Assembly: GCA_002009975.1 (NCBI GenBank)
Contig: MTLP01000005.1
Span: 1-50,306 of the forward strand
Length of the DNA: 50,306 nt
Source: Thermococcus sp. JdFR-02
GTDB lineage: Archaea > Methanobacteriota_B > Thermococci > Thermococcales > Thermococcaceae
Reading direction: 5' to 3'
The notes under the pieces were generated by a model, which saw only the letters and a program-made list of their open reading frames with translations, had not been told where the DNA came from and did no database searches. Position 1 is the stretch's first letter; the number at the start of each line of letters is the position of its first letter. This document shows, in pieces, positions 4,016 to 26,540 of this stretch. Both the position numbers and the translations under genes were made by a program.

Positions 4016-4604
4016 TCTTTACCGCCTCTACAAGACGCTTTTTCTTATGAGAACGCATTCCATAAAGTTTTCCAGCAAATGAAGTTACGATGGCTAACAA
4101 ATCCTCTACGAGTTCTTTTTCTGGCGTTTTCTCTTCATCATCGAAGATTACCTCGATTTCAACACCATGAGAGTTGAAGTATTGTTCGAGGTATTTGAAT
4201 CCAAAGCGTGTGAGTCTATCCCTGTAAGTTATGACGACTTTCCCAACTTCTCCACCCTCAACCAATTTGAAGAGTTGTTTTAATCCCCTTCTGTTCTCGT
4301 TCAAGCCTGATGAAATGTCGGTAAGAATTTTCACAACTTGATAACCCTTGGAGGAGCAGTAGTTTTTGAGATATTCAACCTGTCTCTCCAAGTCCTCTTT
4401 CTGGTCTCTGCTCGAAACTCTGGCATAAATGACGACCTTATCAAGAGTTTTTCCTTCAAGTAGTCTTTTGATTTCACTTTCGGGAATACGGTATTCTTTT
4501 CCAACACGATACGCTTTAATCTCGCCAGATTTAATCTTTCTAATTAGTGTTGGTTTGCTGATACCCAAGAGTTGTGATGCCTTACCTGTTCGATAGAGCC
4601 TCAT
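3996..4604 (-). CDS. tnpA: IS607 serine-recombinase transposase with N-terminal HTH
   Basis: N-terminal HTH (YRTGKASQLLGIS), catalytic YARVSS, DISSGLN, RDRLTRFG; ATG 4604 after GGAGGAG. Confidence 0.93.
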   Translation of the reverse strand: MRLYRTGKASQLLGISKPTLIRKIKSGEIKAYRVGKEYRIPESEIKRLLEGKTLDKVVIYARVSSRDQKEDLERQVEYLKNYCSSKGYQVVKILTDISSGLNENRRGLKQLFKLVEGGEVGKVVITYRDRLTRFGFKYLEQYFNSHGVEIEVIFDDEEKTPEKELVEDLLAIVTSFAGKLYGMRSHKKKRLVEAVKNALRDD

Positions 4605-4879
4605 ACAGCACTCCTCCAAAATAAATTATGAAATGAAAATATTTAAACTTTACGCTTTTAACTATTTATGAAACAGCCCTAGAGAGGACTATCTATGAAG
4701 TAACTGCTGTTTAGGAGTACTATTACCAATTAAAACCACAAGCTAATCAAGTACTGCATTTATAAACACATCCATCATTCAATATAAATTGAAAAGTTTG
4801 GGGAGGAGTACATAGAGTACATGAAAAACAAAAAAATTAATTCCTTACCTATACTAAGTGAATGGGGAAAGAAAGAAGC

Positions 4880-17827: not shown

Positions 17828-17924
17828 CCTTGCTCCCCAGCATTAAATATGCAAAGTTAATGCGTTTAAAGATTTCGATAGAAATTTTTCTTGCATAAAG
17901 TGTTGCAGAAGAGCTTTGTTAATT

Positions 17925-17975
17925 TTTTGGTGGTCCCGCGGCCCGGATTTGAACCGGGGACCTGCGGATCTACAG
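17925..17975. repeat. att site, left copy (3' half of tRNA-Tyr)
   Basis: TTTTGGTGGTCCCGCGGCCCGGATTTGAACCGGGGACCTGCGGATCTACAG, identical to 26457-26507. Confidence 0.97.
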
Positions 17976-18917
17976 AGCACAAATTCTCCAAACAAAGGTG
18001 ACAAACTCACTTACACACCAGTCAGAGAACAATTTATCCGGTATCTCGCTAACAGACTCAGTAAAAGTACTGCTGACGACTACATTAAGTACTTGGACAA
18101 ATACTTTGGTGATGCTGTCGTCAGGAGTCCAGAAGAATTGAAGCAACTCCTCGCCAAAGCAGATAATGGGAAACCTGGAAGGTGGAATTGGTTGATTAAT
18201 GCAATTCGTGTTTTGATACGCTTTCACTTGGAGACTGGAAGAATTACTCAGGATTTTGCATTCCAACTGAAGCGGGTCTTGAAAGAAAGACCAGAAGGTG
18301 TAGATGTGCGGTTGCCTAGCGACGAAGAAGTTAGACAAGCTCTTTCCAAAGTTGAAGACGAGAGGATGCTGGTTGTCGGGTTGCTCTGTTTGTTTGGTGG
18401 TATCAGAGTAAAAGAAGCTATCAAACTAGTCAATGAGTTTGACAGGAGCAAGCTTCACATAGAAGACGGAATAGCCTACTATGAGTTGGGTTGGAGGAGA
18501 AAGAGCAAGATATCCTACTATGTCTTCATGCCAATTGAGTTAGCGGAAAGGTTAAGGAGATTCAGAGTGACGTATGATGGAGTTGGAGGATACTTTGTTA
18601 AGCGAGGTCTCCCACTGAAATACGCAAGAAAATGGTTCATAAACAAGATGATAGAAAGCGGTGTTCAGGAGAGTGTTGTGAAGTTCATGATAGGTCATAG
18701 CCAAGGTGGTGACATCTTAGCAACCCATTACATCAACCTCTTTCACCAGGCAAGAAAAGCTTACAAAGAGAATGTGGAGAGGCTAAAACAAGCCCTTGAT
18801 TTTCCCACCATTCTTGCCTCTTACAACCAGCACTCAATGACAAAAAACCGTGAAGAAACAAAGGTTACCAGTACTCCAATCCCCTCAAGAACTCTAGTTG
18901 CCTATCAATGTCCCTGA
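17925..18917 (+). CDS. int: Tyrosine integrase, C-terminal fragment Int(C), SSV1/pTN3 type
   Basis: Catalytic set GGIRVKEA (R), RRKSK (K), LKYARK (KxxR), MIGH (H), ATHY (Y); the att is translated in frame as FWWSRGPDLNRGPADLQ. Confidence 0.92.
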   Translation, partial: FWWSRGPDLNRGPADLQSTNSPNKGDKLTYTPVREQFIRYLANRLSKSTADDYIKYLDKYFGDAVVRSPEELKQLLAKADNGKPGRWNWLINAIRVLIRFHLETGRITQDFAFQLKRVLKERPEGVDVRLPSDEEVRQALSKVEDERMLVVGLLCLFGGIRVKEAIKLVNEFDRSKLHIEDGIAYYELGWRRKSKISYYVFMPIELAERLRRFRVTYDGVGGYFVKRGLPLKYARKWFINKMIESGVQESVVKFMIGHSQGGDILATHYINLFHQARKAYKENVERLKQALDFPTILASYNQHSMTKNREETKVTSTPIPSRTLVAYQCP

Positions 18918-19083
18918 TTTCAGCGTCGATAAATTTTATTTCCTGAATAAGCCTCCTCCTCTCCTCTAGCAGTTTTTGCCTCTGTTTTTCCAGTTTTTCA
19001 ATCTTTCTGAAGTATGCACTGGTCTGGCGGACTTCATCAAGAGCACTTCTGGCAACTTTCCTCCCAAAGAGTAATCTCAACAT
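18865..19083 (-). CDS. Small coiled-coil protein (element)
   Basis: RBS AGGTGG; heptad pattern IEKLEKQRQKLLEERRRLIQEIKFIDAEIRDIDRQLEFL. Confidence 0.65.
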   Translation of the reverse strand: MLRLLFGRKVARSALDEVRQTSAYFRKIEKLEKQRQKLLEERRRLIQEIKFIDAEIRDIDRQLEFLRGLEYW

Positions 19084-19123
19084 CTTGACCACCTAAAAAA
19101 GAAAGTTTCAAGGGGAGAGGAGT

Positions 19124-19444
19124 TCACTGCCTCTGATAATAGCCTGCTCCCCCGAATTGCTGAACGACATTCCACAAGGCGTAGATAATCATTATCAAGA
19201 AGAACAGTAGGATTACTGTTGCTCCTATGCTCATAGCGTTGTTCAAGGGCTGGAAGACTCCACCAAAGACTGGAAGTGTGGTAATGTCTGTGACGTTTAT
19301 GTTGTCCAATGTAACTTTTGCTGTGTATCCTAGGAAGATAAAGGTCAATGACAAAATCCCAATATACATCATAGCACGTCCTGCTATTTCAATGTCGGTA
19401 AAGGCACTGTCTTTACTCAAGAGCCACTTCAAAAACACTATCAC
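19124..19444 (-). CDS. Two-helix hydrophobic protein; candidate capsid/matrix/pilin subunit
   Basis: Strong RBS GGAGGTGGTG; two long hydrophobic helices joined by a polar loop with an N-V-T sequon. Function is inferred. Confidence 0.6.
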   Translation of the reverse strand: MIVFLKWLLSKDSAFTDIEIAGRAMMYIGILSLTFIFLGYTAKVTLDNINVTDITTLPVFGGVFQPLNNAMSIGATVILLFFLIMIIYALWNVVQQFGGAGYYQRQ

Positions 19445-19545
19445 TTTTCACCACCTCCTAAGGTTGTTGTGGTTGTAGGGGGAGGACAGGGACAGAGAAT
19501 TGTCCCCTCCTCCCAATATTCACTAAATTTTCAATCTTTACAGGA

Positions 19546-19742
19546 TTTTTGGACGGTTTTCATAGTGTTTTAGACGGAGAAACACTATCATAGCCCTCTG
19601 TTTCTTGTCATTGTCGTCAGTGTCTAGTCAGAAATCTTAACATTCAGAGTGAAAGTTAAAAGTTCTTACCAGGCTTTTCTTAACTTTCAAACTGATATCT
19701 AGCGAATGTTAAGAAAACAGAGAGCTGAAAACCGTCCAAAAA
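19546..19742. other. Structured non-coding domain 1 (nested inverted repeats)
   Basis: 17-bp perfect closing IR 19546-19562/19726-19742 enclosing several internal stems. Confidence 0.8.
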
Positions 19743-19796
19743 GTTTACTAACAGTAAGTAGGACTTAATATCAGTAAAGGGCGGAGGTGAAACGAG

Positions 19797-19967
19797 ATGG
19801 GGAAGGAAGAAGAAATCAAACGACTTGTAAGGGACTTGAAAACCAACCTCTACAGTATCCGAGCGACAAAGGTGTCAAAGTACTGGAAAGGTGTTGGAAG
19901 GAATGTCGAGGAGGCTATCAACCTTGTTGAGACCTTAGAGAAAGAGTTAGGAGGTGAGAACAAATGA
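19797..19967 (+). CDS. 56-aa hypothetical protein (not in the ORF track)
   Basis: RBS GGAGGTGA; MGKEEEIKRLVRDLKTNLYSIRATKVSKYWKGVGRNVEEAINLVETLEKELGGENK; ATGA overlap with the next gene. Confidence 0.7.
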   Translation: MGKEEEIKRLVRDLKTNLYSIRATKVSKYWKGVGRNVEEAINLVETLEKELGGENK

Positions 19968-20203
19968 AGCCAAGATTACAGTTCGAGAAGTACCTAGGAG
20001 CCAAGGTCAGCATAAAAATGGATGATGGCAATGTGTTTGTTGGCACTCTTGAGAATGAGGATTGGCAATTCTTGCACCTCACTAATTGCAAAGTGAAGAC
20101 ACCCAAAAGCAGAAAATTCACCAGCAGACCTGCTGCAGTGGTGAGAAAGTTGTTCATACAGAACTTGGTTGTCCTTGAAGATTCAAGAGGTGAGGCGAGA
20201 TGA
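19964..20203 (+). CDS. Sm/LSm/Hfq-fold protein A
   Basis: Sm1-like YLGAKVSIKMDDGNVFVGTLENEDWQFLHLTNCKV; Sm2-like AVVRKLFIQNL; RBS GGAGGTGA. Confidence 0.75.
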   Translation: MKPRLQFEKYLGAKVSIKMDDGNVFVGTLENEDWQFLHLTNCKVKTPKSRKFTSRPAAVVRKLFIQNLVVLEDSRGEAR

Positions 20204-20463
20204 GCACTAACTGGGCTGAGTTTAGCCACTTCTGGCGAAAGAAAGTCATTGTCATGGACAGGTCTAAGAAAACCACGTATGTTGGGAAACTTGTTCAGGA
20301 GACCAATCAGTTTATCACACTTAAGGACGCTAAGGTTGTAGTTAACGGCAGGGCGAAGGAGTCAGAATATCTAGCAATTTGGAAAGGAAGAATTGCTGTT
20401 ATTAAGTTGGCAGAACAACAACCAGGAGAAGGTGAGGACAATGCAAACACCAAAAATCCCTAA
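20200..20463 (+). CDS. Sm/LSm/Hfq-fold protein B
   Basis: KKVIVMDRSKKTTYVGKLVQETNQFITLKDAKV; Sm2-like LAIWKGRIAVI; ATGA-coupled to protein A. Confidence 0.65.
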   Translation: MSTNWAEFSHFWRKKVIVMDRSKKTTYVGKLVQETNQFITLKDAKVVVNGRAKESEYLAIWKGRIAVIKLAEQQPGEGEDNANTKNP

Positions 20464-20809
20464 ACCTGAAGGCCCGTATTACTCTCCACGGGAAATAGCC
20501 AAGATTCTTGGCACTTCGGTTGACGCCATTTACGTCTGGATAGAACAGGGGAGAGTTGCAACACTGAAAATACACTATGGGATGAGAGTGTATCATTGGA
20601 TACCGAAAGAAGAAGTTAAAAGGCTCAAGAAGGAGAAACCTCCAAAAGACAGAGTGTTAAGTACTCGTGAAGCCGCTGAAATTCTTGGCGTTAGACAGGA
20701 AGACGTGGTGCAGCTTATTCATTCCGGCAAACTCAGAGGCATCAAAGTAGGATTGTACTGGAAGATACCTGAAAGTGAAGTCTTGAGGTTGAAACAAACA
20801 GAGGGATAA
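20441..20809 (+). CDS. Tandem excisionase/MerR-type HTH protein (two HTH domains)
   Basis: YSPREIAKILGTS..WIEQGRV..WIPKEEV and LSTREAAEILGV..IHSGKLRGIKVGLYWKIPESEV. Confidence 0.85.
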   Translation: MQTPKIPKPEGPYYSPREIAKILGTSVDAIYVWIEQGRVATLKIHYGMRVYHWIPKEEVKRLKKEKPPKDRVLSTREAAEILGVRQEDVVQLIHSGKLRGIKVGLYWKIPESEVLRLKQTEG

Positions 20810-20843
20810 GCACTTGAAAAAGAAAAGTTGGAGGGAGACAGAC

Positions 20844-21113
20844 ATGGCAGCACTCCTCTACGCCTTTCAAGGAAATGAGATTGCCATAGAGTATGACCCC
20901 AATAAGATGTTTGCCTTTCCACATACAAAGGCATTTTGGTACACTCCCGAAATCCCAGAAACCGACAGATTGTCCTGTTCCTCTCAAAAGCCCACAGCAT
21001 CTCCCTTCTTTGGGTTTTTGAAAAACAACAAGGAGACAGGAGGACTTGTGGAACAACCGGTGAACATGGCTTCTTTTTCTACCCCTTTGTTTTCTTGCCA
21101 GATTTTGGTATGA
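20844..21113 (+). CDS. Possible hypothetical protein or degenerate ORF overlapping hairpins
   Basis: RBS-like GGAGGGA before the ATG; the 3' half coincides with a stem-loop; no recognisable motif. Confidence 0.3.
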   Translation: MAALLYAFQGNEIAIEYDPNKMFAFPHTKAFWYTPEIPETDRLSCSSQKPTASPFFGFLKNNKETGGLVEQPVNMASFSTPLFSCQILV

Positions 21114-21168
21114 ACAACCAGACCTCTACAGTTAAGATTTTGGAAGTTTGCTAAGGGTGGTGGTGAAG

Positions 21169-21390
21169 ATGGGGAGGCAGTATTTCACCATTAAAGAGTT
21201 CGCCAAAGCGTTCATGACGTCTGAAGGAGAAGTACTATGGGCAATCACATGGGGCAAAATCAAGGCAGAGAAAGTGGATGGTAAGCTCATGATTCCGAGG
21301 AGCGAGATACTCAGATTACTAAGAAAGGTGAATCCCAACCTAACTGACAAAGACTTGGACATCTGGGAAGAAGCAAACTTTGGGAAATGA
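21169..21390 (+). CDS. Excisionase-type HTH protein
   Basis: YFTIKEFAKAF..ITWGKIKAEKVDGKLMIPRSEI. Confidence 0.8.
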   Translation: MGRQYFTIKEFAKAFMTSEGEVLWAITWGKIKAEKVDGKLMIPRSEILRLLRKVNPNLTDKDLDIWEEANFGK

Positions 21391-21489
21391 TAAGCCTCTC
21401 CTGTTCTTTCTTTTTCTTGGTAGGCTGGTGAAAACACTCCAAAAAGTATATGTAATGAGATAAAGAGATAAAGATTTGAGGGAGGAAGC

Positions 21490-21714
21490 ATGCAGAAGAA
21501 GGAGTACTATACAACTGGAGATGTTGCAAGATTGTCAGGCTACCACTACACTACTGTCCAGCTTTGGATTCAAACAGGAAAGATAGAAGCAAAGAAAATC
21601 GGTGGCTGGTGGAGAATACCCAGAAGTGAAGTTATCAAGATTCTCAAAGAGAAACTTGGCTTAACTAATGAGGAAGTCAAAAAGCTCCTAGGTCAAGAGG
21701 AAGTAAAAAACTAA
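21490..21714 (+). CDS. Excisionase-type HTH protein
   Basis: YYTTGDVARLSGYHYTTVQLWIQTGKIEAKKIGGWWRIPRSEV. Confidence 0.85.
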   Translation: MQKKEYYTTGDVARLSGYHYTTVQLWIQTGKIEAKKIGGWWRIPRSEVIKILKEKLGLTNEEVKKLLGQEEVKN

Positions 21715-21734
21715 AACAGAAAAGGTGAGACCAG

Positions 21735-23591
21735 ATGACCAAGAGCACAGCCCCCAATAGTGGATATGCTGGAACTCCTACAAAGGGTTTATGGAGGGTT
21801 CCGGTAACTGTCTACCGAGCACCAGCAGGTTCAGGGAAAACTACTTACATGGCAAGGCAAGTGAAAGAATGGTGGAAGAAGAATCCAATAAACCGGAAAA
21901 TTGTACTCATCCTTTCTGATAATCACAAAAGTCTTGAAGAAGTTGAGAGGAAACTAATTGAAGCTGGTATTGACCCTAAGCTCATTTTCCACTACTATGG
22001 ACACTCCCAACTGTGCCCTGTTGTTCACTTGAAAAACTTCAGACCAGTCATTGCTTGTAGCATCTGCGAGAAGTTCTATCCGCAAACTGCCCAAAACTGC
22101 CTGTACAAAGAGAGAGTTGAGAAGTTTAGGAGAGGTCACTACAAAATCCTCATAGCTCCTTTTGAAGTCATAAACAACAGAACCTTCAGAGAGATTCAGG
22201 ACAGAATAGCATTCATCTGGATTGAAGAAGACCCTTTCAAAACAAGACCACTGAAAGAGCCAACACCTCAAGTAATTGCAGGGCAATCAAAAATCTACGG
22301 CAGAATGCTTACAGAAGATGACTACATCAACAGAGCTACTGAAATTGAAAAGAAGATAGTGGAAATTTTGTTTCCTTCCAATCTTGACCCTCAAGAAGTA
22401 CCTGCTAGAGCAGTCCTCTTAGCTCAAATCTTCAATCCATCACCAAGAGAGATAGGGTACTACTACAAAATGAAACAAGCAGGTCTTAGTACTTGGCTAA
22501 TCAAACAGTGGTACATCCTTGACGTCATTGAAATTGCAAAATCAAACCAAGCTCCAATCTACATAACTAACGCTTCATTTGACATGAACAAGTGGCTAAA
22601 TGTAGATGTTATTTACTTTGCCATTCATGGAGAGCGCCTCCCAGTAAACCTCACAATTGACAACACTATTTTCTTTAATCCTAGCCCATCTCCCAACATG
22701 ATTGTAAGACTACATTTTGAGGCTTGGTATCCTAGAAACTCCTTCAACAACAGAAGAACAGTGAAGGAAATTGCAAAAGAGATAGTGATTCTTGCTAGTA
22801 AGTTCAAACAGCCAGTTATTCCGGTTATCACTTTCAAGACTCTTGCTGATACCCTGAAAGCTGAGATAGAGAATGAAATCTCCAAGATAAGAATGAAGGA
22901 AGGCAAAGAACTCAAACACTACAATGCTGAGGTCAAGGTCATGACATTTGGAAGTTTGAAGACAAGAAATGACTTTGAAGACTACAAAGTTGGATTCATT
23001 GTCGGCAGTTACAACATTGGGAAAGAGAGCTTGAAAAAAGCGATTGAAAAAGAGCGTGGTCCAGTATTCGATGATAAGGACTTTGAAACAACAAAAGTGC
23101 CAGGACTTGGTTACATCTACACGAATGCTGAGATTGAGGAATTCAGACAAGCGGAAGAAGATGAGGAGCAGTATCAAGCAATCATGAGGTTCAGACCTAA
23201 GAAAAAGCCTACTCTTGTTTTCATCTGGGGCAGAGTTCCCGAGAGAGCTATAAAAGAGTTCAACAGGTATGTCGAAGAAGATAGTGCACTAACTTTCATC
23301 ACAACTTGGCTCAGCCCAAGAAAAAGAAAACTCCTCAAACCCTACATCACAGAATTCACACTGGATGACTTGGTGAAAGTTGGTGAGGCTTATCTCCTCG
23401 ACAGGAAAAACAAAGGGGCAAAGAAAGTTGCAGTTTCAGAGGTCAGGAAATTCTTGGTCAGGCACTTCAAGGTTGACAACAAGAAAATCAACAGAGCTAT
23501 GAGAACACTGAAAGAGAAGTATAGGGTAGAGCAGGTCAAGAAAGGAAAAACTTACAAGGAGTTTTTTGACCTCTCCGACTCAAAGAATTAG
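21735..23591 (+). CDS. Helicase-like putative replication protein with a four-Cys cluster
   Basis: Walker A APAGSGKTT, degenerate Walker B IWIEEDP, LCP..CSIC..NCLY, motif-VI-like QAIMRFR, basic C-terminal wHTH-like tail. Confidence 0.65.
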   Translation: MTKSTAPNSGYAGTPTKGLWRVPVTVYRAPAGSGKTTYMARQVKEWWKKNPINRKIVLILSDNHKSLEEVERKLIEAGIDPKLIFHYYGHSQLCPVVHLKNFRPVIACSICEKFYPQTAQNCLYKERVEKFRRGHYKILIAPFEVINNRTFREIQDRIAFIWIEEDPFKTRPLKEPTPQVIAGQSKIYGRMLTEDDYINRATEIEKKIVEILFPSNLDPQEVPARAVLLAQIFNPSPREIGYYYKMKQAGLSTWLIKQWYILDVIEIAKSNQAPIYITNASFDMNKWLNVDVIYFAIHGERLPVNLTIDNTIFFNPSPSPNMIVRLHFEAWYPRNSFNNRRTVKEIAKEIVILASKFKQPVIPVITFKTLADTLKAEIENEISKIRMKEGKELKHYNAEVKVMTFGSLKTRNDFEDYKVGFIVGSYNIGKESLKKAIEKERGPVFDDKDFETTKVPGLGYIYTNAEIEEFRQAEEDEEQYQAIMRFRPKKKPTLVFIWGRVPERAIKEFNRYVEEDSALTFITTWLSPRKRKLLKPYITEFTLDDLVKVGEAYLLDRKNKGAKKVAVSEVRKFLVRHFKVDNKKINRAMRTLKEKYRVEQVKKGKTYKEFFDLSDSKN

Positions 23592-23785
23592 CAATATGCG
23601 TTAATCTCTTCTATCTACCGAGTTCAACTTGATTGCTTGGTTTTCTGGCAACTTTGTTTCCAAAGATGCTTAAAATAATAATAATGTAACAACAATCTTT
23701 TTCGTTGTCCTCCACCACTCCTAGCATACTCCTTCTTTTCCTAGAAAGAAGAGATTTCCTCCTGACCTAACGCATATTGCTAATT
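23586..23785. other. Structured non-coding domain 2 (candidate replication origin)
   Basis: 18-bp perfect IR AATTAGCAATATGCGTTA/TAACGCATATTGCTAATT plus an inner 14-bp stem (1 mismatch) and an AT-rich core. Confidence 0.75.
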
Positions 23786-23818
23786 TTTTGCCCTATACTC
23801 CTCACACAGAAAACTCAC

Positions 23819-24000
23819 AAACATAATTTTCGTCAGTGAGGTGGAAAGCTGTGGGGGATGTTGAAATCCTTTCCAAACTTCCGACTTTGATTTCAACAAG
23901 ACTCTATTATTATATAGTATGGCAGAAATCAAACATACCAGAAAATAGCCTCCTCTTCACAAGCACCAAGAAAACTTCCGCACTGACGAATATTATGTTT
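23819..24000. other. Structured non-coding domain 3
   Basis: 20-bp IR with 1 mismatch (23819-23838/23981-24000); inner 10-bp perfect stem 23859-23868/23889-23898. Confidence 0.75.
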
Positions 24001-24046
24001 TGCCAAACTGTAGTCCTGATAAGAAAGCTGTTGGGAGGTGGTTTGT

Positions 24047-24241
24047 TTGTTTGACTACTTGATAAACAGTTTAGTTGGGAAGAAAGTTCTTATTAAGACT
24101 ATCAAAGACATCACTATCAAGGGTGTCCTCAGAGACTACTCTCCAGATTTCCTTTGGATTCAGGATGCAGTGATGGGAGGAGTTTATGTCGGAACTGTCT
24201 TTGTGCCAAGAAACACAGTTATTGACATTCTTCCAGTCTGA
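24047..24241 (+). CDS. Sm/LSm-fold protein C
   Basis: SLVGKKVLIKTIKDITIKGVLRDYSPDFLWIQDAV; Sm2-like GTVFVPRNTVIDI; RBS GGAGGTGG with a probable TTG start. Confidence 0.72.
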   Translation: MFDYLINSLVGKKVLIKTIKDITIKGVLRDYSPDFLWIQDAVMGGVYVGTVFVPRNTVIDILPV

Positions 24242-24399
24242 TTCTCTTTTGTTCCACTCTTCCAATCTCAGCTGATGCTTTCTTTCCTCAGTTTTCCCCA
24301 CATTTTCTCCTGTTTTCACTCTACCAGTAATCTACCCTCTCCCCCTCCAAAAAGTAGATGTAGAACTTCCAATTAACAATTTTACACAGAGGGAGAGGG

Positions 24400-25326
24400 G
24401 TGAAGATTGTGGGCTTGTCTCTGCTCTCAGGTAAAGAGCTTCTGGCAAAAAACGGAGGAGAATTACTTGACCGCTTTCTCAGCAGAAACCCAGCATACGG
24501 TGGTAGACTTGGCATGATTACAGGAGAGCAAGGAAGTGGAAAAACCTCCTTGCAACTACTCTTTGCCAAGAACTTTGTTGGTGGGGAGTATGTCATCTGG
24601 AGAGGCAGATTCTTGGCACAGTGGCATAAGTTACCAAACTGGGGAAGCAAGGTAAGGATACTTGTTCACAAGGACGACAGTATAGAATTCTTGAAGTTAC
24701 CTTATGACGGTAGTAGGTCTGAAGTACTTAACATTCCAGTGGTCAGATATGAGAGTGCCAGAGATGTACTGAAGAAGTTAGACAAGAACTACATTAATGT
24801 GATTTACGAACCACCTGGCTACAGAATTTCACAAGAGTTGGTGGAAGATGTCAAAGAGAGGACAGGATTAGTAATCTCGCCCGACAAACTTGAGGAGGAG
24901 AAGCCTGCGTTCTTTTGGTTCGAGATGTTATACCGTCTGCTCACCAGAGAAGACAGAGATTGGTACGCTGTTTTCATAGATGAGGTGGACGACATTTTCC
25001 CAGAGACACCGTCGGGCCCTCAATTCGCCCTCCAAGCGTGGGTGAAAGACATACTCAAAGACCTGAGGAAGGCGTTGGTGTCGCTGATAGTTTCAACTCA
25101 CACAATCCGCAATGTTGACTGGAGGATTCGCACTAAGATACCGACATATATTTACCTGAGAGGAGCAGAGGTGAGGCCGGGGTCTAAAATAAAACAACAG
25201 TATGTCCTCCTCATGGACCCTGGGTATGCTTACATTGAGTGGGGGCGATATGGTGTATTCAAATTCAACTATCTTCCCCAACCAAAATACGACATCCTAG
25301 TACGGAGAGGTAAGAAGGAGGGGTGA
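24400..25326 (+). CDS. HerA/FtsK-superfamily-like P-loop ATPase (candidate packaging/extrusion ATPase)
   Basis: GEQGSGKTS, VFIDEVDD, LRKALVSLIVSTH, VDWRIRT. Confidence 0.75.
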   Translation: MKIVGLSLLSGKELLAKNGGELLDRFLSRNPAYGGRLGMITGEQGSGKTSLQLLFAKNFVGGEYVIWRGRFLAQWHKLPNWGSKVRILVHKDDSIEFLKLPYDGSRSEVLNIPVVRYESARDVLKKLDKNYINVIYEPPGYRISQELVEDVKERTGLVISPDKLEEEKPAFFWFEMLYRLLTREDRDWYAVFIDEVDDIFPETPSGPQFALQAWVKDILKDLRKALVSLIVSTHTIRNVDWRIRTKIPTYIYLRGAEVRPGSKIKQQYVLLMDPGYAYIEWGRYGVFKFNYLPQPKYDILVRRGKKEG

Positions 25327-25569
25327 CACAGAGAGGGAGTACTTTTAATATTTACTATGTCCCGCCTACATAGTCTGCCTCTCGCTCTTCTCTCTTGCGG
25401 GTTGGCCGCCTGGTACCCTGGGTGTTTGTCAACTTTGTTTTCAAGCATGAAAGTTCTTTGAGGATTCAAGTGAACATTCAACTTTCAACTGTTTTACAAA
25501 CAGAAAAGCCTATAAGTGTCAAAGAAGAATACTACAGGTGACAACCTGTTTTTCTGGGAGGTGTTAAGG

Positions 25570-26217
25570 GTGGCAAGATGGGTTCAGGTCTTGAAGGATG
25601 GAGACTGGGCAATGGTACGTGCGGAAGCCATAGATAGTTTTTGGATTACTGAGCGCAAGGATGAAAAGGTTGTCAACTTTGATGTCAATGGTCAGACCTA
25701 CTATCTCCTTTACCCAAGGAAGCGTCTTGTTCCAGACATTTCCGACATTCGCAAGTGGCTTGATGTCGACTATGATGGGGTCTTGACACTCTGGCACTTC
25801 TATGTACTCCCAACACGGTATGATGTCACAGAATTTGTTGTTTCCGTTGCTCTGACTGATTACCTCCACTCTTTCTCGAATTTCAAGAGCTTCAAGAATA
25901 GAGAAGTGGTGCGTCAGGGAGTTGAAGAAGCATTAGAGGAGATTTCGGAGAGAGGAGAAGCGCTAGATTTTGGCTTCACCTTGCCATTGTTTGGTCCAGG
26001 GTGGTGGGAAGATTTGACATTTCCGAAATCATTGCTCTTGGAAGAATGGAATGGTTTCAAACTTGTTTTGAAGTCACACTTTGTGCAAATTATCCCAAAA
26101 CTTCAAGGTGAGGAAAAAATCTCAGATATAGCAGACAGAATTGCCGGTACTATTGTTAACTACTACAACCTTGTTAACTTTGTGAAAAGGAAGTATCCAA
26201 AATTCTGGATTCTTTGA
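25570..26217 (+). CDS. Hypothetical protein (element)
   Basis: RBS GGAGGTG before GTG 25570; BRE/TATA-like AAAAGCCTATAAG at ~25504; no motif recognised. Confidence 0.65.
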   Translation: MARWVQVLKDGDWAMVRAEAIDSFWITERKDEKVVNFDVNGQTYYLLYPRKRLVPDISDIRKWLDVDYDGVLTLWHFYVLPTRYDVTEFVVSVALTDYLHSFSNFKSFKNREVVRQGVEEALEEISERGEALDFGFTLPLFGPGWWEDLTFPKSLLLEEWNGFKLVLKSHFVQIIPKLQGEEKISDIADRIAGTIVNYYNLVNFVKRKYPKFWIL

Positions 26218-26336
26218 CTCTTCCTTCTTTTCTTCCGGTTTGGCAAAAAGATTTAAATCTTGATTTATATCAGTTACTATTGCTTGTGGTATTGTTGCCA
26301 TAGGAGTTATAGGCTCTATAGTCGGAGGCGCTGGCA

Positions 26337-26507
26337 ATGGGTGTTGAATCCGGAAGGAAAACGACAATCTGGGTGAGTGTGGAGTTGAGGGAGGAGTTAC
26401 GGAAGATTGGCAGAATGGGAGAAACTTACGAGCAGGTTATCTGGCGTCTGCTAGAATTTTGGTGGTCCCGCGGCCCGGATTTGAACCGGGGACCTGCGGA
26501 TCTACAG
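26337..26507 (+). CDS. int: Integrase N-terminal fragment Int(N) with a ribbon-helix-helix-like motif (ORF continues to 26693, antisense to the tRNA)
   Basis: 40 codons and then the att, in the same frame as Int(C); KTTIWVSVELREELRKIGRMGETYEQVIWRLL. Confidence 0.88.
26457..26507. repeat. att site, right copy (within the intact tRNA-Tyr)
   Basis: Identical to 17925-17975. Confidence 0.97.
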
Positions 26508-26540
26508 TCCGCCGCCGCTCCCAGGCTAGGCTACCGCGGG
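26463..26540 (-). tRNA. tRNA-Tyr(GTA)
   Basis: CCCGCGG..GCGGA-CTGTAGA-TCCGC..GGTTCAAATCC..ACCA. Confidence 0.96.

Follow-up and report, generated by a model that had tools for sequence, protein, structure and literature searches.

What kind of mobile element occupies the tRNA-Tyr gene of Thermococcus sp. JdFR-02: a plasmid, a virus, or something that moves with the help of one? The element lies in a stretch of 50,306 nucleotides (nt) of contig MTLP01000005.1 (assembly GCA_002009975.1; contig C14 in our numbering), the whole of which is here called the window. It is an intact 8.5-kb mobile element inserted in the tRNA-Tyr gene of a Thermococcales archaeon, and it belongs to a conserved family of 8.2- to 8.8-kb elements that is listed in the literature consulted at most as unclassified. 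We interpret it as an integrative plasmid-virus hybrid, most likely spreading as a satellite of spindle-shaped viruses, an interpretation to which we give about an even chance of being right. Newly recognized here are the kinship of its membrane protein to ORF121 of the virus PAV1, the identity of its ATPase with PAV1 ORF375 and its counterparts in pTN2-type plasmids, and a predicted XPD/DinG-like helicase with four invariant cysteines.

An intact element and its family

The element is bounded by a perfect direct repeat (51 of 51 bp identical), the attachment (att) copies being spaced 8,532 bp apart, exactly as claimed in an earlier note on this DNA that was made from the letters alone. The repeat runs from the anticodon loop of tRNA-Tyr to 4 nt beyond the tRNA 3' end and is present in two copies only in the whole 2.36-Mb, 44-contig assembly. 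The G+C content of the element is 42 to 46%, compared with 38.1% for the genome. The integrase gene is divided between the two ends (Table 1), and its C-terminal part, Int(C), matches the Pfam family PF16795 (Phage_integr_3; E 1e-39, profile positions 3-160 of 161) and phrog_5127 (E 4e-52) and is 66 to 75% identical to the integrases of sibling elements. Both att copies begin at a codon boundary and a single frame is shared across Int(N) and Int(C), such that in the circular form Int(N) joins 17976-18917 in frame to yield a stop-free open reading frame (ORF) of 370 amino acids (aa); the circle ORFs of the window element and of two sibling integrases are 370 to 373 aa long and all stop-free. 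The element's own site, attP, is thus predicted to lie inside the integrase ORF, with the gene split on integration and whole again only in the excised circle. The catalytic domain (a domain-level match), the attP within the ORF, and the regenerated tRNA 3' target are all as in SSV-type elements. The Int(N) residues preceding att are identical to those of two siblings at 36 of 40 positions and the residues following it are 70 to 78% identical, whereas just 9 of the 16 att-coded residues are conserved in the two siblings, a divergence that agrees with a switch of target from tRNA-Val to tRNA-Tyr. The tRNA-Tyr(gta) gene of genome G075 is occupied by a different, 29.5-kb element (G075:C1:1969080-1998622; loci L032 and L033) whose 55-bp att includes the last 47 bases of the window element att, and the same target site is therefore used by two unrelated elements.

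Relatives were sought in a host-order set of 99 species genomes, in which the window genome (G000) is the sole member of its genus. At least five share its gene order, four in species genomes and one on a metagenome contig. Those of G075 (51-bp att, 8,190-bp spacing), G094 (47 bp, 8,606 bp), and G092 (47 bp, 8,751 bp) are integrated at tRNA-Val, as is that of L023, a 9,878-bp metagenome contig on which the whole element is present; the Int(N) of the G049 element overlaps a tRNA-Gly(gcc) gene, and this element is cut by the contig end. The four complete genome-borne elements, that of the window included, span 8,190 to 8,751 bp and three genera. Their common order is Int(C), a coiled-coil gene on the opposite strand, a capsid-like gene (in some members), small proteins, Sm-like proteins, two to four HTH_17 proteins, a large replication protein, a 246- to 292-aa protein, an ATPase, a small variable gene, and Int(N). 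The 246- to 292-aa protein is absent from the window element, which has an unrelated 67-aa ORF in this slot upstream of the ATPase. Pairwise ratios of nonsynonymous to synonymous substitution (dN/dS) in six genes are 0.03 to 0.23, with synonymous sites at or near saturation, and the conserved size and order together with the low dN/dS argue for old, functional, size-constrained elements and not for deletion remnants. When the element DNA was compared with the 99 genomes, only homologous elements and integrase fragments were matched, bar one 27-nt, 96% match in G012 that falls inside the integrase gene; we do not read it as a CRISPR spacer, the search not being designed for spacers.

The earlier note named descent by deletion from a larger element as one of two grounds on which its reading would fall. 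Could the element, then, be the decayed and immobile residue of something PAV1-like or pTN2-like? Its small size, the presence of only two of 25 PAV1 genes, and the far shorter, remnant-like pair of integrase fragments in G004 could be taken that way, but the att copies are perfect, the circular form has an unbroken integrase ORF, four complete elements from three genera agree in size and gene order, and the dN/dS values are those of genes under constraint, and we regard decay as very improbable. Nor is there whole-element synteny with a described plasmid or provirus family, the only syntenic elements being these relatives, which are uncharacterized in the literature consulted.

Two further loci were encountered in these searches. 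In G004 (C1:1190792-1192550), DNA resembling the Int(N) region (83% identity) is separated by only about 1.3 kb from DNA resembling Int(C) (73%), which may be what is left of a relative after extensive deletion or an integrase on its own. G092 carries a second small element (G092:C1:603860-613800; L034/L035) of 9.9 kb with 44-bp repeats at tRNA-Glu(ttc), which has a PAV1 ORF180a-like gene and none of the family's other genes.

Capsid-like, ATPase, and replication genes

The 106-aa protein has two hydrophobic segments and aligns over its full length with PAV1 ORF121 at 30 to 35% identity. According to Krupovic et al. (2013; PMC3543421), the product of ORF121 has been shown to be a structural protein of the virion, and by sequence the 106-aa protein is a homologue of this PAV1-type spindle-virus capsid protein. 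Ten homologues (62 to 100% identity) were found among 5.8 billion proteins, and the gene is present in three of the 99 genomes, including that of the window; a profile built from the homologues detects it in the window, G092, and G094 elements and gives no other significant match anywhere in the window genome. Its dN/dS is 0.03 to 0.11, and it has been kept in three elements of three genomes despite saturated synonymous sites. Neither the capsid protein nor the ATPase had a match in IMG/VR, whether searched as single proteins or as alignments, and the capsid alignment had none in JGI metagenomes. The adjoining 75-aa coiled-coil gene is present in every relative for which the left part is available (dN/dS, 0.14 to 0.18). 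The intergenic region that separates the capsid gene from the rightward genes is 80 to 83% identical in two siblings and probably contains promoters and operators.

The ATPase is 50% identical to the product of pP12-1 gene 10, about 40% identical to those of pTN2 and pIRI48, and 38% identical to PAV1 ORF375, and on sequence grounds it is an orthologue of these virus and plasmid ATPases. A model built from nine sequences (predicted local distance difference test score [pLDDT], 92.4; predicted template modeling score, 0.90) matches HerA (Z up to 17.8), TrwB (Z 15.7), and VirB4 (Z 15.1), as well as the genome-packaging NTPase B204 of STIV2 (Z 16.0, root mean square deviation [rmsd] 2.5 Å over 183 of 197 residues). 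Residues G45, G47, K48, and T49 (Walker A) and D194 and E195 (Walker B) are invariant. Matching predicted viral structures include the PH1 ATPase, a corticovirus NTPase, A32-like packaging ATPases, and Zot; an ATPase profile run against Protein Data Bank (PDB) sequences gave P-loop-level matches only. The function of the pTN2/PAV1 ATPase was called obscure in 2013, with a relationship to ABC ATPases (PMC3543421). DNA translocation or packaging would be the most economical function for the modeled protein, and the fold result proposes a role for an ATPase that is common to PAV1 and the pTN2 plasmids. At E ≤ 1e-5 the ATPase is found in six of the 99 genomes, the window genome included, G069 having a distant, split homologue. 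An alignment search gave five metagenome and two genome loci, and only L023 and L028 (the G049:C97 contig) belong to the family; the others (L024 to L027 and L029) have the ATPase homologue alone, with no capsid or other family gene. In L025, L026, L027, and L029 the homologues, 39 to 41% identical, are outside the Thermococcales with no element-family or PAV1 gene nearby (the L026/L029 contig is titled as metagenome-assembled genome Candidatus Mnemosynella biddleae), and the ATPase thus seems to travel with other elements too.

The 618-aa protein is predicted from its model to be a two-lobe superfamily 2 (SF2) helicase of XPD/DinG-like type. It has a Walker A motif (GSGKT, residues 32-36), an acidic EED (164-166), and exactly four cysteines (94, 108, 111, and 122), all between these two motifs and invariant in four family sequences with identities down to 30%. 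The 4Fe-4S domain of XPD and DinG sits at the same position, between Walker A and the acidic motif, and we infer that the four cysteines bind an Fe-S cluster. With the model (pLDDT, 64.5; residues 284-340 and 506-540 are below 50), the first eight Foldseek ranks go to XPD entries (E 3e-10 to 4e-7) and the ninth to a DinG complex, all with probability 1.0, whereas VIA-align gives Z scores of 13 to 15 to many SF2 motor domains, among which XPD does not stand out. A C-terminal domain of ~80 residues is modeled as a helix and a beta-hairpin. At the sequence level the protein is isolated, with no Pfam family above noise, no match in phage or plasmid collections (tblastn; 72,556 plasmid records), and no match in the PDB. 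It is found in three of the 99 genomes, including that of the window, and a word-index search gave three proteins; a profile search of 1.84 billion representatives recovered 127 homologues at E ≤ 0.001, 68 of them at E ≤ 1e-10. Thirty of the homologues were scanned against Pfam, and no domain was recognized in 28 of them; of the other two, one weakly matches a viral SF1 helicase and one has BT4734-like_N and ResIII.

The SF2 helicase is present in the window element and in its G075, G049, and L023 relatives, whereas the same slot in G092 and G094 is filled by a 502-aa P4-family primase C-terminal protein (SF3 helicase; TIGR01613, E 1e-57). Such an alternation of helicase and primase-helicase in one slot marks it as an exchangeable replication module, and the Thermococcales spindle viruses are described as likewise having one (Catchpole et al. 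2026, PMC12934983). Adjoining the helicase gene is a noncoding stretch with two pairs of 23-nt inverted repeats, a candidate replication origin; in L023, downstream of a helicase that is 82% identical, a 22-nt inverted repeat lies in the same place and shares the word AATTAGCAATA. In the related literature we found no archaeal mobile element reported to replicate with an XPD-like Fe-S helicase, and the 618-aa protein is possibly a new type of replication protein.

Table 1. Features of the tRNA-Tyr element, in positions of the window
Feature	Coordinates	Strand	Remarks
Int(C)	17916..18917	plus	C-terminal catalytic part of split SSV-type ("suicidal") tyrosine integrase; reads through attL
attL	17925..17975		left copy of perfect 51-bp direct repeat
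75-aa coiled-coil protein	18865..19092	minus	directly downstream of capsid gene, same strand
106-aa membrane protein	19124..19444	minus	alpha-helical hairpin; PAV1 ORF121 homologue by tblastn (E 8e-16)
Divergent intergenic region	19445..19796		perfect 17-nt inverted repeat, 19546-19562 / 19726-19742
56-aa conserved small protein	19797..19967	plus	no assigned function
79-aa Sm-like protein	19964..20203	plus	LSM E 5e-4, below Pfam cutoff
87-aa protein	20200..20463	plus	paralogue of 79-aa protein (hhalign probability 81%, E 1e-5)
Two-domain HTH_17/excisionase-type protein	20393..20809	plus	PF12728 E 4e-19 (2 stretches), TIGR01764 E 6e-18
Two overlapping small ORFs	20814..21154	plus	99 and 72 aa, different frames
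80-aa HTH_17 protein	21148..21390	plus	PF12728 27.9 bits (cutoff 27)
74-aa HTH_17/MerR-type protein	21490..21714	plus	PF12728 E 5e-12, TIGR01764 E 3e-9
618-aa SF2 helicase (predicted)	21735..23591	plus	presumed replication protein
Noncoding stretch with inverted repeats	23581..24000		23-nt pairs 23581-23603 / 23768-23790 and 23819-23841 / 23978-24000
67-aa possible Sm-like protein	24038..24241	plus	DUF2642 E 1e-4, LSM E 0.01
308-aa HerA/FtsK-superfamily P-loop ATPase	24400..25326	plus	phrog_22963 E 1e-90
233-aa ORFan	25516..26217	plus	specific to window element
Int(N)	26337..26507	plus	N-terminal 57 codons of integrase, ending in attR; integrated ORF continues to 26693
attR	26457..26507		right copy of the repeat, 3' part of tRNA-Tyr
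tRNA-Tyr(gta)	26463..26540	minus	ARAGORN; target gene, left intact by integration

The remaining genes are small. In all, three proteins contain four HTH_17 domains, and the longest of them is listed with 138 aa, with an internal ATG at codon 17. The DNA of the two overlapping ORFs that follow it is conserved in siblings, and either frame (99 or 72 aa) could be the coding one. Assignment of the 79-, 87-, and 67-aa proteins as Sm-like is weak by sequence: the 87-aa protein itself has no family match, the 67-aa protein is not found in sibling elements, and the PDB profile matches of these proteins, to Sm D3 and LSm4, fall short of significance (E 0.07 to 1.3). It is, however weak, consistent with the Hfq-like genes of thermococcal plasmids, of which Hfq/Sm-like genes are described as a known feature (PMC3543421). 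The 233-aa ORF has itself as sole match among 5.8 billion proteins, no Pfam, PHROGs, or NCBIfam family, and no Atlas lead (best score 0.88). Elsewhere in the window, a solitary HTH_17-like stretch (4413-4616, minus strand) is 36 to 41% identical to the excisionase-type proteins of the family and lies far from any att.

Most gene labels of the earlier note stand up well. Its split integrase has the Pfam match and the 370-aa circle ORF described above, its helicase-like protein has an SF2 fold with XPD and DinG in the top ranks, and its HerA/FtsK-like ATPase label agrees with the HerA and B204 structural matches. The two-helix membrane protein does have two hydrophobic segments, its kinship to ORF121 being an addition of the present work, and the three Xis-type helix-turn-helix (HTH) proteins correspond to the three HTH_17 proteins, with the TIGR01764 domain. 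For the coiled-coil protein the ORF is there but Pfam gives only weak matches to coiled-coil families, and of the three Sm-like proteins two have family matches (LSM for the 79-aa and DUF2642 for the 67-aa protein) and the 87-aa protein does not.

Satellite, plasmid, or virus

What the element lacks is as informative as what it carries. In keeping with the earlier note, no polymerase, primase, Rep (including HUH and DUF7845), adhesin or lectin, or type IV secretion system family was found when 16 ORFs were scanned against Pfam and PHROGs and 14 against NCBIfam, and the largest ORF is that of 618 aa. In tblastn comparisons of the PAV1 proteins with all family members (E ≤ 0.05), only 2 of 25 match (ORF121 and ORF375); ORF676 and ORF678 have no match in any member, and neither does the remainder of the PAV1 structural module (ORF109, -158, -293, -214, -140, and -138). 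Two lectin-domain proteins are described as core to all four proposed families of Thermococcales spindle viruses (PMC12934983), and by this measure the element falls short of full membership in each of the four. It does have the composition of a satellite, that of a small replicon in which replication genes of plasmid type are combined with only part of a virion module.

A life cycle as a satellite can be proposed from these genes. The excisionase-type HTH_17 proteins would control excision and the divergent promoters. The excised circle would replicate from the inverted-repeat region adjoining its own XPD-like, putatively Fe-S SF2 helicase, which would recruit the host replisome; neither a primase nor a polymerase was found in the element. 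The HerA/FtsK-type ATPase would then move the DNA into a particle made with the element's own PAV1-type hairpin capsid protein. Since the two lectin adhesins are absent, infectious particles would most likely need a coinfecting or resident spindle virus, such that the satellite would provide capsid protein and ATPase itself and take its attachment apparatus from that virus.

Are there candidate helpers? The window genome contains a 23,693-bp provirus (contig C7:21147-44885; L030, L031) flanked by 46-bp repeats at tRNA-Gly(gcc). Its products include an MCM helicase of 929 aa that is extended at the N terminus, an SSV-type integrase, a ClpP-like protease, a DUF2341/PEGA protein, and a lectin protein that shares 51% identity with that of TPV1. 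PHROG matches of TPV1 type are numerous, and the provirus appears to be intact and of the TPV1-like spindle kind. A second candidate is the 29.5-kb element of G075, in which a 599-aa ORF with a Laminin_G_3 domain adjoins the integrase. The window genome has five SSV-type integrases in total; we note a third element at C9:80006-94859 (14.8 kb, 48-bp repeats, tRNA-Gly[tcc]) and integrase genes at C19:1361-2215 and C11:38834-39712 without a flanking repeat on their own contigs.

Several observations weigh against a satellite lifestyle, and the first concern these helpers. The TPV1-type lectin is found in 5 of the 99 genomes and in none of the four other family-host genomes, and lectin-bearing resident elements were found in just two of the five host genomes, G075 being the only other host with a lectin-domain ORF beside an integrase. 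No lectin-bearing element was found in G092, G094, or G049, by a PF13385 scan that is insensitive, having missed the lectins of the window genome's own provirus; the second, 9.9-kb element of G092 is without lectins, and G094 has no SSV-type integrase besides that of its small element. A hydrophobic 136-aa candidate capsid protein of the C7 provirus has no detectable relation to that of the element (BLASTP E 3.4); a PAV1-type helper would fit better and there is none in the window genome. Coresidence is thus not the rule, and any helper that is required would in most cases have to arrive from elsewhere. Moreover, the profile search finds no capsid gene in the G075 and L023 elements, two of the five relatives with the left part, and the gene is therefore dispensable for persistence of the family. 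Neither a circle junction nor an empty site is seen in any public contig covering the stretch, and in the spacer check suggested in the earlier note none of the 82 CRISPR spacers of the window genome matches the element, any of the relatives, or the C7 provirus over 24 nt or more. The ATPase is of HerA/FtsK type and not of the AAA+ type found in fuselloviruses, pSSVx, and SRCEs. Lastly, the depth of the element is about that of its flanks in two sequencing runs, X1 and X2.

The depth data are at the contig level and come from nine sequencing runs, none of RNA, seven of which contain the stretch or part of it; four were compared. In X1 and X2, both possible sources of the assembly, element and flank depths are 78 and 82 and 16 to 17.5 and 15 to 20, respectively. 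In X3, an independent metagenome from a different study in which the sequence has no mismatches, depth is 51.8 to 92.6 over the element and 24.6 to 29.9 over the flanks. The read-coverage check proposed earlier thus shows equality in two runs and a two- to threefold excess in one, an excess that hints only weakly at further copies, whether episomal or belonging to other strains. A contig end at position 17969 in X3 was considered as an attB or attP junction and rejected, as it has no match to the remainder of tRNA-Tyr. Run X4 has only short pieces of uneven depth, among which 323 nt within the helicase gene (22207-22529) reach a depth of 580, with other element pieces at 6 to 89; this peak may be a fragment common to an abundant relative. 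Among the spacers, one from the C5 array matches C8:79546-79583 at 38 of 38 nt and another matches C40 at 28 of 31 nt, which may be self-targeting or aimed at other mobile elements in the assembly.

Equal depth in two runs and the two relatives that lack the capsid gene and retain the rest are what would be expected of an integrative plasmid with no virion stage, in which the ATPase serves partition or DNA transfer, as it presumably does in the pTN2 plasmids, and the ORF121-like protein is cargo acquired from a PAV1-like virus that might act in superinfection exclusion or membrane-vesicle export. On this view the core of the family, made up of integrase, regulators, helicase, and HerA/FtsK ATPase, is plasmid-like. 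The same ATPase is common to the capsid-less plasmids pP12-1, pTN2, and pIRI48, Hfq/Sm-like genes are known from thermococcal plasmids (PMC3543421), and a 2026 pangenome preprint refers to intermediate-sized plasmids with no obvious specialization for virion production. However, purifying selection on the capsid gene is strong (dN/dS 0.03 to 0.11), the gene has persisted in three genomes at saturated synonymous sites, and its product aligns along its full length with a virion protein, while the ATPase finds its nearest compact structural match in a viral ATPase that packages genomes (Z 16.0, rmsd 2.5 Å). We consider a plasmid without virions possible but somewhat unlikely.

The earlier note had proposed a satellite or a minimal extruded virus. 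The intact, compact organization and the virus-type genes bear this out in part, and the two capsid-less relatives and the lectin elements in only two of five hosts do not. As an autonomous minimal virus or "plasmidion," the element and its capsid-bearing G092 and G094 siblings would have capsid, coiled-coil, and ATPase proteins that suffice to wrap or export the 8.5-kb circle by budding or extrusion, with lectin-independent entry. A capsid protein, an ATPase, an integrase, and a replication helicase are all encoded by the element itself, G094 harbors a capsid-bearing member and no other element with an SSV-type integrase, the element is in excess over its flanks in X3, and the ATPase fold resembles those of Zot and of packaging ATPases of membrane-containing viruses, this general likeness being the sole basis for extrusion in particular. 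But no lectin adhesins were found, these being core to all four proposed spindle families, capsid-less siblings exist, no other gene of the PAV1 structural module was matched, and 8.5 kb is about half of PAV1 (18,098 bp), so that autonomy seems distinctly unlikely. Were it true, this would be a spindle-type archaeal virus with a genome about half the size of PAV1, and it would show the ORF375-type ATPase to be the DNA-packaging motor of PAV1-like viruses. Our preference remains for the satellite.

Relation to described elements

With PAV1 (proposed "Osirisviridae") the element shares the ORF121-type hairpin capsid protein, the ORF375-type ATPase, and a Thermococcales host. It differs in being integrated where PAV1 is episomal, in its size (8.5 kb versus 18.1 kb; it is also much smaller than TPV1 and pT26-2-type elements, as had been noted), and in having no detected ConA-like lectins, ORF137 or ORF180b cassette partners, ORF153-like regulator, or DUF7845 Rep. 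The latter is reported as the Rep of PAV1 (PMC13107129), and the element has the SF2 helicase for replication instead. Some osirisviruses are described as carrying integrases and their replication locus as swappable (PMC12934983). Of the tandem ORF137/ORF375 cassette, the ORF375 homologue is present and ORF137 has no tblastn match in the elements.

The pTN2-family plasmids (pTN2, pP12-1, and pIRI48) have in common with the element the ATPase, small Sm/Hfq-like genes, a size of about 8 to 13 kb, and helicase-based replication, but they lack both an SSV-type integrase and a capsid-protein gene, and the 618-aa protein has no tblastn match to any of the three, including their SF1 helicase. The ORF153-like regulator, with a coiled coil and a winged HTH, is called "absolutely conserved" in this plasmid family (PMC3543421), and PAV1 ORF153 has no BLAST-level match in our elements.

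The closest parallels in lifestyle are pSSVx and pSSVi of Saccharolobus and the SRCEs, which also combine a small plasmid-type replicon with an incomplete morphogenetic module. SRCEs are described as haloarchaeal elements of 2.7 to 9.0 kb with a capsid protein and/or ATPase beside plasmid replication genes, proposed to be pSSVx-like satellites, and likened to capsid-forming phage-inducible chromosomal islands (PICIs); pSSVx and pSSVi are given there as the sole archaeal virus satellites described previously (Zhou et al., bioRxiv 10.1101/2025.02.15.638363), and pSSVi is, from the title of a reference, also able to integrate. The element differs from pSSVx and the SRCEs in its host order and in being chromosomally integrated with a tRNA att, and helper packaging has been shown for pSSVx, whereas that of the element is proposed here from genes alone. 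The capsid-forming PICIs are a functional analogy only: they too are integrated satellites with their own capsid and packaging and with attachment taken from the helper, but they are bacterial, have tailed virions, and share no homology with the element.

Unclassified integrated elements of Thermococcales have been reported, with which the element shares, by description only, an SSV-type integrase, a tRNA target, and an 8-kb lower bound. The survey of Badel et al. (2020; PMC7253208) describes 47 elements of 8 to 38 kb with related integrases, including eight fuselloviruses recognized by capsid protein and six elements "without known relative," and one of its unclassified elements targets tRNA-Val(TAC); the 2026 pangenome preprint also mentions unclassified families of integrated elements. 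We found no publication on an 8- to 9-kb Thermococcales element with a PAV1 capsid protein, this ATPase, and an XPD-like helicase, although the supplementary tables of PMC12934983 and PMC7253208 may list some, and in the accessible part of the 2026 survey of Thermococcales viruses (PMC12934983) the term satellite appears only in a reference title.

Capsid-bearing and capsid-less members with an otherwise identical architecture constitute a natural experiment on the plasmid-virus transition, a subject discussed by Krupovic et al. (2013; PMC3543421). The source labels on some homologues (Thermococcus paralvinellae and Thermococcus sp. M39) suggest that there are cultured carriers, and these would offer a tractable hyperthermophilic system for the sharing or hijacking of spindle-virus capsids.

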